A stretch of 24,435 nt of DNA, taken from IMG/VR virus record IMGVR_UViG_2541047682_000003; one strand, given 5' to 3'. The notes below the pieces were generated by a model. That model searched no databases, was not told the origin of the DNA, and saw only the letters and a list, made by a program, of their open reading frames with translations. This DNA comes from a virus. Its lineage: Duplodnaviria > Heunggongvirae > Uroviricota > Caudoviricetes. Positions 19,202 to 23,138 of this stretch are shown here, piece by piece. Positions within the stretch are counted from its first letter, which is position 1. Each line of letters begins with the position of its first letter. The position numbers and the translations under genes were made by a program.

Positions 19202-19495
19202 TTATTGTGAGCAATACACACGCGCTTCCAGCGGAGTATAAATGCCTAAAGTAATAAAACCGAGCAATCCATTTACGAATGTTTGCTGGGTTTCTGTTTT
19301 AACAACATTTTCTGCACCACCACAAATTTTTGCTGCATCGACAGTTTTCTTCTGCCCAATTCCCGAAACGAAGAAATGATGGGTGATGGTTTCCTTTGGT
19401 GTTACTGCTGTAGGTTTGTTTCCAACAGTAAACGTCTGTTGAGCACATCCTGTAATAAGCATTGCCAGAGCGGCAGAAAACAACATTTTTTTCAT
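19202..19495 (-). CDS. bor: Bor lipoprotein (serum-resistance)
   Basis: 97 codons from MKKMLFSAALAMLITGCAQQ (lipobox); matches lambda Bor as recalled. Confidence 0.92.
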   Translation of the reverse strand: MKKMLFSAALAMLITGCAQQTFTVGNKPTAVTPKETITHHFFVSGIGQKKTVDAAKICGGAENVVKTETQQTFVNGLLGFITLGIYTPLEARVYCSQ

Positions 19496-19677
19496 CTTAT
19501 TATCCTGCATTGTTAAAAACGGCAGAATCCTATGTGACAACAATTAAACGATAGTTAAATGGATTGATGAAAATTAAAACTACACAGGTGGGCTCAGACT
19601 ATTGGAGGAAGTTGGGGACACTCAGAATCCTGTGGAATGAAATAAACCGGTCTATCCGTCCATTACTGGATTTGCCC

Positions 19678-20583
19678 CTATATTTCCAGACACCTGTTAT
19701 CACTTAACCCATTACTGGCTTGCTGCCGCAGATATTCCCGTGGCGAGCGATAACCCAGTGCACTATGCGGATGCCATTCGTTATAATGCTCGAACGCCTC
19801 TGCAAGGTTCTTTGCTGCCGTTAACCCGTCTGGTTTGGGCATGACACTGATGTAGTCACGCTTTATCGTTTTCACGAAGCTCTCTGCTATGCCGTTACTC
19901 TCCGGACTCCGCACCGCCGTGCTCTTCGGTTCAAGCCCCAACATCCGGGCAAACTGCCGTGTTTCATTAGCCCGGTAGCATGAACCATTATCCGTCAGCC
20001 ACTCTACTGGAGACGCCGGAAGCTCGTTGCCGAAGCGGCGTTCCACCGCTCCCAGCATGACGTCCTGTACTGTTTCACTGTTGAAGCCGCCCGTAGTGAC
20101 CGCCCAGTGCAGTGCCTCACGGTCACAGCAGTCCAGCGCGAACGTGACTCGCAGTTTTTCTCCGTTATCACAGCGGAACTCGAACCCGTCAGAGCACCAT
20201 CGCTGATTACTTTCTTTCACAGCCACTCTGCCTGTATGTGCCCGTTTCGATGGCGGTACAGCAGGTTTTCGCTCAAGCAACAGCGCATTCTGGCGCATGA
20301 TCCGGTAAACACGTTTGGCATTGATCGCAGGCATACCATCAAGTTCTGCCTGTCTGCGAAGCAGCGCCCATACCCGACGATAACCATACGTGGGCAGCTC
20401 TCCGATAACATGGTGTATACGGAGAAGCACATCCGTATCATCAGTGTGACGACTGCGGCGGCCATCCATCCAGTCATCGGTTCGTCTGAGAATGACGTGC
20501 AACTGCGCACGCGACACCCGGAGACAACGGCTGACTAAGCTTACTCCCCATCCCCGGGCAATAAGGGCGCGTGCGCTATCCAC
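19678..20583 (-). CDS. insD: IS2 InsD (OrfB transposase)
   Basis: 301-aa [26 protein letters not shown]...; overlaps insC for the frameshift fusion. Confidence 0.92.
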
Positions 20584-20906
20584 TTTTTTGCCCGTCCATA
20601 TTCAACGGCTTCTTTGAGGAGTTCATTTTCCATCGTTTTCTTGCCGAGCAGGCGCTGGAGTTCTTTAATCTGCTTCATGGCGGCAGCAAGTTCAGAGGCA
20701 GGAACAACCTGTTCTCCGGCGGCGACAGCAGTAAGACTTCCTTCCTGGTATTGCTTACGCCAGAGAAATAACTGGCTGGCTGCCACACCGTGTTGCCGGG
20801 CAACGAGGGAGACCGTCATCCCTGGTTCAAAGCTCTGCTGAACAATTGCGATCTTTTCCTGTGTGGTACGCCGTCTGCGTTTCTCCGGTCCTAAGACATC
20901 AATCAT
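20541..20906 (-). CDS. insC: IS2 InsC (OrfA, HTH)
   Basis: 121 codons from [25 protein letters not shown]... Confidence 0.9.
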
Positions 20907-21311
20907 CTGCTCTCCAATGACTAGTCTAAAAACTAGTATTAAGACTATCACTTAAATAAGTGATATTGGTTGTCTGGAGATTCAGGGGGCCAGTCTAATT
21001 ACCCTTTTAGCTGCGCTGTATCGTCGCCGTATTCCCGCATTAACCATGACCGTAGCCCGACGGGGAATTCCTTCTGCGTGAGTGTGCGGGAATAATTAAA
21101 AACGATGCACACCGGGTTTTTACCGCGTTAATGATTCGCGGGTTTATCCCGGTGCGATGGTGGAAGAAACAGGAAGCTGTATTACAGAAAGTGCTACTAC
21201 TGTATCCCGATGCGATGTATGTAATGTGAGTCAGATAATGGCACAGGATGTGGTGATGTGGCAGTCTGGAACACAGGATATATTGTCAGAATAAGACCCG
21301 TAGGAATAAAA

Positions 21312-21638
21312 ATGAAAAGACGCCTTTTACTACTTTTTCTGTTATCTGTCCTGGCAGTGGGATGCTCGCAGCAAAAAGCTGATGAGCCCCGGCAATTAGT
21401 GACGGTGTATCCACGATATCCGGAATATGCTGCAGCAAATTATATCAAGGGGCTGGTTGAGGTTAAGTTCGATATTGGTGCTGATGGGACTGTGACACGG
21501 ATCGTTTTTCTCCGCTCAGAGCCTCATAATTTGTTTCGTGATGAAGTGGTGAAGGCCATGGCGAAATGGCGATTTGAAAAGAATCGCCCCTGTCAGGGAG
21601 TGAAGAGACAATTTATCTTTACGCCGTCACGTCCTTGA
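21312..21638 (+). CDS. Lipoprotein consisting of a TonB C-terminal domain
   Basis: 108 codons from MKRRLLLLFLLSVLAVGCSQQ (signal peptide + lipobox, RBS AGGA). The remainder aligns with the TonB C-terminal domain as recalled (YPRYPEYAAANYIKGLVEVKFDIGADGTVTRIVFLRSEPHNLFRDEVVKAMAKWRFE vs TonB [54 protein letters not shown]). Confidence 0.75.
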   Translation: MKRRLLLLFLLSVLAVGCSQQKADEPRQLVTVYPRYPEYAAANYIKGLVEVKFDIGADGTVTRIVFLRSEPHNLFRDEVVKAMAKWRFEKNRPCQGVKRQFIFTPSRP

Positions 21639-21760
21639 TGCTTCCAGGTAGAGAGGGGCTGGAAGCAGGAGAAAAATGAAAGAGCCAGCGGTTATATTTT
21701 TGTCATGGCTGACGAGGAATGATGGAAGAAGGCGTTGTATGCCACACAACGCCTCACTGT

Positions 21761-21940
21761 TCATTTCTTCTTTTTCTCTGGTGGAACCCGATGAATAAGA
21801 GTTGCACTGGTTTCCGATGAGATGGCGATATACTCGGGCAAAGTATGCTGGCAGTTTTCCAACTGGTCAAAAATACCTGCTCTCGTCTGTTGCAATGCCT
21901 GCAGCATGCGGCGGCAATGCGCCTTGCTTTTACTAACCAT
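21761..21940 (-). CDS. Hypothetical 59-aa protein
   Basis: Start taken at MVSKSKAHCRRMLQ (ATG 21940) preceded by a good RBS (GAGGAAGG). The longer 117-aa reading of the ORF track lacks an RBS and overlaps the next gene. Confidence 0.4.
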   Translation of the reverse strand: MVSKSKAHCRRMLQALQQTRAGIFDQLENCQHTLPEYIAISSETSATLIHRVPPEKKKK

Positions 21941-22001
21941 CTTTCCTTCCTCTATCAGTCGCTGCGTGAACTCATCATGGAATACCAGGTAAATGCGGAT
22001 G

Positions 22002-22253
22002 TTATCGGTTTTGGCTACGCAGCATAGTACAAAACGGACAGGTGCATCCCGGGACGGGGGAGGCGTCACATGTCCCTGTGATGGTTGTTCCGGGTAATGT
22101 ACTGTGTGGGGCATAAAAATGTCCGATAATTTTACTTTCTACCGCAGTTAGTTGATTCGTTGGTCCTGGTAGCACATTGGGCGAGGATTTAAATGCCAGG
22201 CAACTGAAGGATGATGTCGCAAGGGAGATAGCGAGAATATTTCTGATTTTCAT
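22002..22253 (-). CDS. Small secreted cysteine-rich protein
   Basis: 83 codons from MKIRNILAISLATSSFSCLA (signal-peptide-like; RBS GAGG), with a C-terminal Cys cluster TGTCDASPVPGCTCPFCT. Confidence 0.5.
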   Translation of the reverse strand: MKIRNILAISLATSSFSCLAFKSSPNVLPGPTNQLTAVESKIIGHFYAPHSTLPGTTITGTCDASPVPGCTCPFCTMLRSQNR

Positions 22254-22401
22254 TTGATGATGCCTCTGTGTGAAATGACGGTAAACGACGCACTTGTGCC
22301 GGCACATAATAGCAAGCACCATAATAGATCAGATTCGATTCTTGCTGTAAGTGATAATTATTCTCGTTTTCGGGTCCTTTCCGTCGATCCAACAGGTTAC
22401 G

Positions 22402-22413
22402 GGGCGGCGACCT
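22402..22413 (+). other. cosN: the 12-nt lambda cohesive-end sequence
   Basis: Exact GGGCGGCGACCT followed by CGCGGTTTTTCACTATTTATGAAAATTTT, a close match to the lambda cos region as recalled, about 180 bp upstream of Nu1. Confidence 0.9.
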
Positions 22414-22589
22414 CGCGGTTTTTCACTATTTATGAAAATTTTTCAGGGAAAATCGTGTCGGTACTTCTCGAATATAACTTTTTGTTTTTTTTAATATTGC
22501 ATCCGTAAAGGTCCGACATGAAAGTGTCCGAAAATGCCTTTTTCTGGCGTTTTCATGTCGGGCCTTGTATTTGATAATGGGTTGTTTTC
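22414..22589 (+). promoter_or_regulatory. cosB: terminase small-subunit binding region
   Basis: Between cosN and the Nu1 start; contains an inverted pair CCGACATGAAA (22513-22523) and TTTCATGTCGG (22551-22561) and AT-rich bendable segments. Individual R and IHF sites not assigned. Confidence 0.6.
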
Positions 22590-23138
22590 ATGAAGGTTAA
22601 TAAAAAGAGGCTTGCCGAAATTTTCAACGTGGACCCGCGGACGATTGAACGCTGGCAGTCTCAGGGACTCCCTTGCGCCTCCAAAGGTAGTAAGGGCATT
22701 GAATCTGTATTTGATACTGCCATGGCAATTCAGTGGTATGCGCAGAGGGAAACTGATATCGAAAACGAAAAGCTCCGCAAAGAACTGGCCGATTTGCGTG
22801 CGGCAGCGGAGTCAGATTTACAACCCGGCACCATTGACTATGAACGCTACCGGCTCACAAAAGCGCAGGCAGATGCGCAGGAACTGAAAAATGCCCGTGA
22901 AGACGGAGTAGTGCTGGAAACTGAACTGTTTACCTTCATTCTGCAACGTGTGGCACAGGAGATTTCGGGGATACTTGTGCGTGTGCCGTTGACATTACAG
23001 CGTAAATATCCGGACATTTCACCATCACACCTTGATGTGGTGAAAACTGAAATCGCGAAAGCCTCCAATGTTGCAGCTAAGGCCGGTGAAAACGTGGGCG
23101 GGTGGATCGATGATTTCAGACGCGCAGAAGGCAGCTAA
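22590..23138 (+). CDS. nu1: Terminase small subunit (Nu1-like)
   Basis: 182-aa ORF resembling lambda gpNu1 as recalled ([12 protein letters not shown]...[15 protein letters not shown]...[29 protein letters not shown]). Confidence 0.93.

Follow-up and report, generated by a model that had tools for sequence, protein, structure and literature searches.

A short leftward gene beside cos in phage 21-type prophages encodes a predicted exported four-cysteine protein with a putative link to metal starvation

What do the small open reading frames (ORFs) next to the cos site of a phage 21-type prophage encode, and which of them are genes? We addressed this question in a 24,435-nucleotide (nt) stretch of viral DNA (Caudoviricetes; IMG/VR record IMGVR_UViG_2541047682_000003), which is called the window here and whose positions are used throughout. 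A preliminary description had placed two morons on the minus strand beside cos, one for a secreted cysteine-rich protein of 83 amino acids (aa) and one for a basic protein of 59 aa. Both ORFs are present exactly as described, and they converge on a gene for a lipoprotein with a TonB C-terminal domain (21312-21638, plus strand). However, only half of the proposal stands: the 83-aa gene is a moron beside cos, whereas the 59-aa ORF is unconserved and broken in common alleles. The 83-aa gene has the following parts:

22002..22253 (stop codon included), minus strand: 83-aa gene, precursor of a predicted exported four-cysteine protein (from homologues, substitution rates and population data)
22263..22267, minus strand: Shine-Dalgarno sequence AGAGG, 9 nt before the ATG of the 83-aa gene (from the sequence)
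22194..22253, minus strand: predicted signal peptide, residues 1-20 (MKIRNILAISLATSSFSCLA), with a predicted signal peptidase I cut after Ala20 (alignment rule)
22029..22070, minus strand: cysteine cluster C62-x7-C70-x-C72-x2-C75 (CDASPVPGCTCPFC), then conserved TMLRS (24-member alignment)

The 83-aa ORF is clearly a genuine gene, because it has homologues of equal length, a low ratio of nonsynonymous to synonymous substitution rates (dN/dS) and homology that is limited to the ORF and its ribosome-binding site. Among 5.8 billion proteins searched, we recovered 22 relatives, mostly of 82-84 aa and with 54-98% identity, which come from E. coli, Citrobacter, Klebsiella, and Salmonella. Using a profile against 1.84 billion cluster representatives, we obtained 31 matches at E<=0.001, most of them 79-88 aa long, and screening a single genome of each species extended the genera with a homologue to Enterobacter, Superficieibacter, Phytobacter, Dryocola, Raoultella, and Kosakonia. 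The family is represented by 80-85-aa homologues in at least 10 genera of the Enterobacteriaceae; in many genera, these show 40-77% identity at the same length. In Klebsiella and Salmonella, the loci are homologous to the window at the DNA level from 8 nt before the ATG to the stop codon, and a GGAG/GAGG-type motif is found at the equivalent place in loci homologous to the 83-aa gene.

Comparison of the phage-clade copies gave nonsynonymous differences per site (pN) of 0.11-0.30 and synonymous differences per site (pS) of 0.37-0.84 except in the two closest pairs; dN/dS was 0.10-0.29 wherever dS could be estimated, with synonymous sites near saturation. We also collected 78 near-identical prophage copies, representing 35 haplotypes. 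Within this population the 83-aa ORF carries four synonymous and five conservative nonsynonymous changes and neither indels nor stops, whereas ORFs that overlap it or lie antisense to it do carry stops and frameshifts. The preliminary description had considered the longer merged readings less likely; these are 106 aa and 117 aa long, and its view agrees with the homologues, which begin at MK(I/V)R. Two further points contradict the 106-aa reading: a common allele carries a mutation in its ATG at 22322, and where two homologues have been annotated with N-terminal extensions, these are unrelated to one another.

The translation is laid out as MKIRNILAISLATSSFSCLA|FKSS...TGTCDASPVPGCTCPFCTMLRSQNR, so that the signal-peptide-like N-terminus and the C-terminal cysteine cluster of the preliminary description are both there, and both are conserved across the family. 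To define the conserved residues, we aligned 24 diverse members with 25-71% identity. A20, F21, C62, G69, C70, C72, and C75 are invariant, and G60, P66, L78, and R79 almost so. The signal consists of MK(I)R, then NILAISLATSSF, then C-L-A|F; position -3 before the cleavage site is C, A, V or S among the 24 members, position -1 is always Ala and position +1 always Phe. By the alignment rule, the protein is predicted to be exported by the Sec pathway and cleaved by signal peptidase I after Ala20 and before Phe21, and conservation of this signal throughout the family agrees with the secreted nature proposed earlier. UniProt names some homologues 'Lipoprotein', and Cys18 of the phage clade satisfies the PROSITE lipoprotein pattern. 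We rejected this reading: residue 18 is Ala, Val or Ser in most members (Ala in most relatives), and as the family has kept A20 and F21 without exception but not Cys18, a cut after Ala20 is the reading that agrees with the alignment.

The mature protein of about 63 aa has a variable middle with a weak (E)SxI..FY..H motif and ends in the family signature G-T-C-x-A-x-P-V-x-G-C-x-C-x-F-C-(T/S)-M-L-R. Two AlphaFold2 runs gave mean predicted local distance difference test (pLDDT) scores of 49 and 60, i.e., low confidence, with helices at residues 32-46 and 73-81 and CPFC placed at the beginning of the C-terminal helix. Searches of Pfam, NCBIfam, PHROGs, PADLOC, and a PDB sequence profile returned no match for the 83-aa protein, nor did Pfam at E<=1 for the 24 relatives, and we found no description of the protein in the literature or in curated families. 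The profile search also returned two long, low-complexity, eukaryote-like proteins (P0081 and P0083, 611-627 aa) with four to five repeats of P(I/L)PGCNCPKCTxLRN. This repeat resembles the C-terminal family motif PVPGCxCPFCTMLRS, and no Pfam domain was found in these proteins; the resemblance is probably a low-complexity coincidence.

Where the family occurs outside prophages is informative about its likely role. The chromosomal relatives are unlinked to bor or phage genes. In Superficieibacter, Phytobacter massiliensis, and Dryocola, the neighbours are a ZnuA/ABC-3/ABC-ATPase transporter with AztD, a KdgM porin, a COG0523 GTPase, and FolE2, and the same loci hold paralogues of HisI (PRA-CH), dihydroorotase, HemB, and ThrRS; the identities of ZnuA, ABC-3, AztD, CobW/ZigA-like, FolE2, PRA-CH, dihydroorotase, HemB, and ThrRS were confirmed. 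Such neighbours are hallmark genes of zinc starvation (PMC11672702). We then scored the Zur-type palindrome ATGTTATnnnATAACAT with a threshold of at least 14/17, which shuffled sequence reaches at a rate of 0.027 per 10 kb. The family gene is preceded by a Zur box at a distance of 50-110 nt in Superficieibacter and Phytobacter massiliensis (L021, L022, L024), in Kosakonia/Phytobacter, where the neighbour is pagP (L026-28), and on a metagenomic contig (L110). On another contig (L108), the family gene follows a COG0523 gene and the Zur box is ahead of that operon. Salmonella salamae and diarizonae (L007, L019) have a perfect TTGTTATAGTATAACAA, then a PPC-domain gene, the family gene, and bor. 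The motif is likewise found ahead of znuC-like, folE2, hisI2/COG0523, and thrS-paralogue genes in those loci. Because the chromosomal members have Zur boxes and many of them reside in zinc-starvation islands, we infer that the family acts in the metal-starvation response.

Additional loci combine metal-related and mobile surroundings. The Citrobacter copy is divergent from a fecIR-type iron-uptake cluster. A phage-clade copy in Klebsiella quasipneumoniae (L004; CP024459.1, 1564-5252 of a 211-kb record) has a cos remnant upstream and IS2-like debris downstream, and adjoins a Fur-family (Zur-like) regulator, a ZigA-like COG0523 GTPase, and FolE2; here, a prophage fragment has landed in, or was kept beside, a zinc-starvation cluster. 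The Salmonella cassette (about 4450-5740 in L007 and 5450-6740 in L019) runs from the Zur box through the 133-aa PPC-domain gene and the family gene to a Fur-like box (TGATAAAAATTATCA) and bor. It is flanked by genes for a SPATE autotransporter, an omptin, and an NEL E3-ligase effector, and has the look of a virulence islet that arose from what remained of a prophage.

The phage copy has a different potential operator. No Zur box scoring at least 14/17 is present anywhere in the window, and the site upstream of the 83-aa gene is a Fur box:

22347..22371, no strand assigned: Fur box, overlapping 19-mers scoring 14/19 and 15/19, with the 7-1-7 core CGAGAATAATTATCA (12/14) at 22352-22366
22321..22350, minus strand: candidate sigma-70 promoter of the 83-aa gene, low confidence; -35 TTACAG at 22345-22350, 18-nt spacer, -10 TATTAT at 22321-22326
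22372-22378, plus strand: cosQ, transferred from the phage 21 annotation at 100% identity
about 22401/22402: cos cleavage site; the end of the phage 21 record is window position 22401
from 22590: Nu1, followed by terminase A

Immediately next to cosQ, the Fur box precedes the 83-aa ATG by 94-118 nt; shuffled windows contain 0.075 matches of at least 15/19 per window. At the equivalent position, lambda, Qin, DLP12, and the diverged prophage L016 each have a perfect TGATAATnATTATCA as the homologous site, with the 7-1-7 box reading TGATAATGATTATCA in lambda and Qin and TGATAATAATTATCA in DLP12 and L016. Strong Fur sites have been reported at nohA -233 and nohB -133, and the Qin nohA site was gel-shifted by Fur after having earlier been selected in vivo (Chen et al., 2007; PMC2189734). 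By sequence extraction, the Qin box is 226-240 nt from the nohA start and is therefore the published nohA -233 site. In CFT073, a peak of height 283 at 1,424,721 in Fur chromatin immunoprecipitation sequencing (ChIP-seq) was also labelled nohA (Banerjee et al., 2020; PMC7157518 Table S5A). This peak maps to window position 22379, 8 bp from the box, in a prophage that is 99.9% identical. The box of the window is the same conserved palindrome by cosQ as in Qin, DLP12, and the CFT073 peak, of which it is the positional homologue. The difference lies in the assigned target: the literature names the terminase small-subunit gene, whereas the nearest gene downstream here is the 83-aa gene (in K-12, ynfO or ylcI).

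Going leftward from the box, one first meets a small leftward ORF at a distance of 100-160 nt in every lambdoid genome that we examined: ynfO, ylcI, an unannotated lambda homologue, or the 83-aa gene. Nu1 is 220-240 nt from the box, across cosN, and is served by the late promoter. This arrangement suggests that the nohA-type Fur site controls a leftward moron unit rather than the terminase gene, and from position and sequence Fur is predicted to repress the 83-aa gene. The lambda ORF is an unannotated 64-aa DUF3950 (YnfO/YlcI-like) reading frame directed leftward from cos (NC_001416 48109-48303, minus strand; 1810-2004 in our record L111), and the perfect box of lambda (2153-2167 in L111) is about 150 nt upstream of it, next to cosQ. 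The same arrangement is repeated in Qin with ynfO and in DLP12 with ylcI, and the published nohA and nohB sites may truly control leftward genes of the DUF3950 type.

In a rival view, the Fur site does not regulate the 83-aa gene but belongs to cos or terminase biology or to Nu1, and the 83-aa promoter is elsewhere. The palindrome is indeed present in lambda, Qin, and DLP12, all of which are without the 83-aa gene, and no strong sigma-70 promoter was found downstream of the site: the candidate -35 and -10 elements were read from the sequence, a consensus scan called neither, and the -10 is altered in a variant allele. The site was also assigned to nohA in both publications (PMC2189734; PMC7157518). 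However, in all the lambdoid genomes examined the gene nearest on the left is the small leftward ORF, Nu1 is more distant, beyond cosN and under its late promoter, and the CFT073 direct-regulon table has no nohA entry (PMC7157518). We therefore regard a site devoted to terminase or cos as rather doubtful, although it is a view to be taken seriously.

Because a 763-nt segment with the 83-aa gene in L016 takes the place of 148 nt that separate the Fur box from the DUF3950 gene in DLP12, the 83-aa gene is a moron inserted into the Fur-guarded leftward unit of phage 21-type lambdoid prophages. Its orientation is opposite to that of the late genes, i.e., it is read leftward, away from cos, and it is absent from lambda, Qin, and DLP12. 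These properties resemble those of known lambdoid cos-proximal or late morons (lambda bor and lom, DLP12 borD, phage 21 iss), which are small, independently transcribed against the late operon, targeted to the envelope, and patchy across lambdoid genomes. The 83-aa family is often linked to bor/iss, and in Salmonella and the E. coli locus L003 it is directly upstream of and co-oriented with it. The 83-aa protein differs from those morons in being unrelated in sequence and no lipoprotein; a Fur operator immediately precedes its gene, and the relatives are normal chromosomal genes that belong to the zinc-starvation response. A Raoultella metagenome-assembled genome (L025) and two viral contigs (L106, L107) appear to carry a second phage-borne lineage, with about 41-44% identity and a strong sigma-70-like promoter (TTGCAT-17-TATAAT). 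Phages may have captured the family more than once.

Taken as a whole, the account that we favour is that the 83-aa ORF is a real moron gene for an exported four-cysteine protein with a Fur operator upstream, belonging to a metal-starvation family; we hold it to be probable, if only by a little. According to this model, cleavage of the Sec signal after Ala20 would yield a mature periplasmic protein of about 63 aa, and the Fur operator would switch the gene on in the lysogen when iron is scarce. The four cysteines might bind Zn(II) or another thiophilic metal; alternatively, two disulfides might shape a small binding module for a component of metal uptake. We rate these two possibilities as about equal and lean to disulfides on general periplasmic grounds. 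The phage would have put one copy of the family under Fur control, beside other metal-related cargo. A bolder version, that the 83-aa protein founds a family of Fur/Zur-controlled periplasmic four-cysteine mini-proteins acting directly in zinc or iron acquisition or buffering, captured by the phage and wired to the cos-side Fur operator, is tentative and at present less than probable. ZinT and AztD, which are Zur-regulated periplasmic zinc helpers, are comparable in their export, which is predicted for the family, and in that chromosomal members have a Zur box near aztABCD/znuABC-like and COG0523 genes. They differ in that the family has no homology to them, is only about 63 aa long when mature, and has four conserved cysteines, whereas the conserved sites of ZinT and AztD are histidine-rich.

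Several observations weigh against the favoured account. Cysteines in the oxidising periplasm usually form disulfides, not metal sites, and the AlphaFold models are of low confidence (pLDDT 49 and 60). The phage copy is without a Zur box, so that homology is its only link to zinc, and the phage-borne relatives L025, L106, and L107 have neither a Fur nor a Zur box. The consensus scan gave no convincing sigma-70 promoter for the 83-aa gene; the Fur box of the window is degenerate (12/14) compared with the perfect box of lambda, and the site is kept where the 83-aa gene is absent, and may serve another purpose there. Finally, the CFT073 direct-regulon Table S1 (PMC7157518) has no entry for the locus, of which the ChIP peak is the sole mention; the 83-aa gene was unannotated in that study.

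Two other functions have to be weighed against a role in metal starvation. The preliminary description had suggested a toxin, bacteriocin-like or signalling peptide, in which case the exported peptide would be a disulfide-knotted effector and metal starvation merely the cue for its production. In agreement with this idea, the layout is that of a precursor of the heat-stable enterotoxins (ST), with a signal peptide, a variable middle that is possibly a pro-region, and a cysteine-rich C-terminus, and Fur-controlled antimicrobial peptides exist, such as microcin H47 of the CFT073 Fur regulon (PMC7157518). The STa precursors share the pre-pro-like layout, the Sec signal with a cysteine-rich C-terminus, and a length of 70-85 aa, but they have six cysteines, whereas the 83-aa family has four in another spacing, shows no similarity to Pfam Enterotoxin_ST or to PDB entries, and, unlike STa, is found in non-pathogenic environmental genera. 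Neither Pfam, NCBIfam nor PDB revealed similarity to ST, guanylin-type or microcin families, and about 12 different genomic contexts contain no immunity, processing or export genes. A class II microcin or bacteriocin was rejected on the grounds that the protein has a Sec signal instead of a double-glycine leader and no immunity or ABC-export neighbours in the contexts examined. Moreover, many copies in environmental Enterobacteriaceae stand alone on the chromosome behind a Zur box. The suggestion of an effector has found no positive support; we consider it unlikely, and the less likely of the two.

It is also conceivable that the 83-aa protein is an envelope or host-defence factor, or one of superinfection exclusion, comparable to Bor/Iss, Cor or PliG, and takes no part in metal chemistry. 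The linkage to bor/iss in several loci and the envelope lipoproteins next to the gene in phage 21 fit this reading, and Zur regulons include non-metal functions, e.g., the lysozyme inhibitor gene pliG. On the other hand, the chromosomal members are unlinked to bor or phage genes and recur by zinc importers and COG0523 genes, and PADLOC gave no match. An envelope factor appears unlikely to us, slightly less so than an effector.

If the 83-aa ORF is a gene, what is the status of the other small ORFs between it and the TonB_C gene? These are:

21761..21940, minus strand: 59-aa ORF, with GAGGAAGGA before the ATG and an EKKKK tail
21845..22027, plus strand: 60-aa ORF (WP_000881610.1; CPT_21_75), from the RefSeq and phage 21 annotation, judged spurious
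21676-21798, plus strand: 40-aa ORF (CPT_21_74), from the phage 21/PGAP annotation
21730..21754, no strand assigned: GC-rich hairpin AGGCGTTGT-ATGCCAC-ACAACGCCT between the convergent units, with a 12-bp stem in both the minimum free energy and the centroid structure

The 59-aa ORF might be a second real gene, co-transcribed with the 83-aa gene. The strong ribosome-binding site and lysine-rich tail of the preliminary description can be read in the sequence (GAGGAAGGA and EKKKK), the Shine-Dalgarno sequence together with ATGGT is also present in the Klebsiella copy L004, and the stop codon is 7 nt ahead of the terminator hairpin. Mismatches to L003 are distributed 9/5/14 over codon positions 1/2/3, which in a hand count is weakly periodic but not significant. 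However, conservation in related prophages, by which the preliminary description proposed to test both ORFs, holds for the 83-aa ORF and fails for the 59-aa ORF, which has no homologues outside near-identical E. coli DNA. ORFs at the homologous place are 59, 31 or 24 aa long or lack a start: in L004, the conserved ATGGT is followed by 31 aa of unrelated-looking residues, L003 has no start codon, and other relatives have a DUF3950 gene or bor at this position. An insertion of one nucleotide after 21923, found in 6/78 copies, cuts the start and ribosome-binding site off from the remainder, leaving a 48-aa ORF that is recorded on 486 contigs, and another copy has a 1-nt deletion. In total, the 78 copies show two synonymous and seven nonsynonymous changes and two frameshifts. 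The 59-aa ORF is probably not a conserved gene and at most a short reading frame, variable or in decay, carried on the same transcript; that it is a real second gene is unlikely.

A diverged DUF3950 (YlcI/YnfO) protein was considered for the 59-aa ORF and rejected, as there was no Pfam match and BLASTP against the DUF3950 protein of L016 gave no alignment at E<=100. Apparent diverged homologues of the 59-aa and 60-aa ORFs (P0026, P0033, P0037, P0022, P0025) look like frameshift-ridden metagenome assemblies of the same DNA. PHROGs has one family for the minus-strand 59-aa ORF, one for the plus-strand 60-aa ORF, and none for the 83-aa ORF; PADLOC returned no match for the 83-aa, 59-aa, 60-aa, and TonB_C proteins.

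Public annotation presents a different picture of the locus. The 83-aa ORF is called neither by the curators of phage 21 (OL657228) nor by PGAP/RefSeq in E. coli, and if these annotations were correct, the real genes would be the plus-strand 60-aa and 40-aa ORFs. PGAP and the phage 21 curators agree in calling both, and the 60-aa ORF has a PHROG. Nevertheless, neither has homologues outside near-identical E. coli DNA. The 60-aa ORF, which overlaps the 3' end of the 83-aa gene, shows no synonymous and seven nonsynonymous changes, the stop E46* in 22/78 copies, and a frameshift in 6/78. The 40-aa ORF has a stop allele, two of its five changes are synonymous, and it traverses the hairpin at 21730-21754. 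WP_000881610.1, CPT_21_74, and CPT_21_75 look like annotation artefacts, and we consider it highly improbable that they are the genes of this locus. The hairpin likely terminates the TonB_C transcript and possibly the leftward transcript too. Apart from it, the 371-nt region downstream of the 83-aa gene has no global structure (z = -0.4), and an Rfam scan of 21000-22620 gave only sub-threshold chance matches.

The remaining features of this end of the prophage are:

19202-19495, minus strand: iss/bor
19667-20997: IS2 copy, absent from CFT073, Nissle, and phage 21 at that place
21157-21294, plus strand: 45-aa ORF (phage 21 annotation CPT_21_72), upstream of the TonB_C gene, without a family match
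21312-21638, plus strand: TonB C-terminal-domain lipoprotein gene, the convergent neighbour (Pfam TonB_C, E=7e-13; NCBIfam tonB_Cterm)

Over positions 21640-22330, the window shares 100% identity with the right end of phage 21 (OL657228) and with a prophage that E. coli Nissle 1917 and numerous further strains carry. This segment is present in 1224/5426 complete E. coli genomes, in 1202 of them at an identity of at least 99%. The window aligns for the most part with the CFT073 prophage, with 99.8-99.95% identity across its right half. That prophage, in the CFT073 segment 1396000-1455000, occupies icd, where phage 21 also attaches, and has sitABCD at its right end; the 83-aa gene corresponds to NC_004431 1424344-1424595 (minus strand). 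Two other CFT073 loci were ruled out as the 83-aa locus: c1255, which is Fur-regulated and of unknown function, is the iroB-divergent gene, and the ChIP peak at c1601 belongs to sitABCD.

The TonB_C lipoprotein consists solely of the TonB C-terminal domain behind the lipobox LAVGC. Its gene served as a control in the population data, where it shows nine synonymous and four nonsynonymous changes. PHROGs tags its family as 'Rz-like spanin', apparently a mislabel. The lipoprotein might interfere with TonB-dependent uptake or with TonB-dependent phages. Together with sitABCD in CFT073, it fits as further metal-related cargo of the same prophage, in agreement with the metal-starvation theme. The IS2 copy of 1331 bp has a 5-bp target duplication and sits about 170 nt ahead of where iss/bor starts, so that it could alter iss expression.

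Phage morons and Zur-regulated periplasmic helpers are known kinds of system; new are the 83-aa family with its unusual Cys4 signature, its capture by phages with a Fur operator in front, and the proposed new assignment of the nohA Fur site. About 23% of complete E. coli genomes carry the gene, those of the uropathogen CFT073 and the probiotic Nissle 1917 among them, as does phage 21, and yet standard annotation omits it and lists instead an antisense ORF that has stops in many strains. It offers a plausible target for a Fur site that was filed under nohA in 2000-2007 and again in 2020, and its family may be a new component of how the Enterobacteriaceae respond to zinc starvation. If the bolder version above is true, the nohA Fur site would be the switch of a lysogenic-conversion cassette with which E. 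coli of the gut and urinary tract, CFT073 and Nissle 1917 included, copes with metal withholding by the host.

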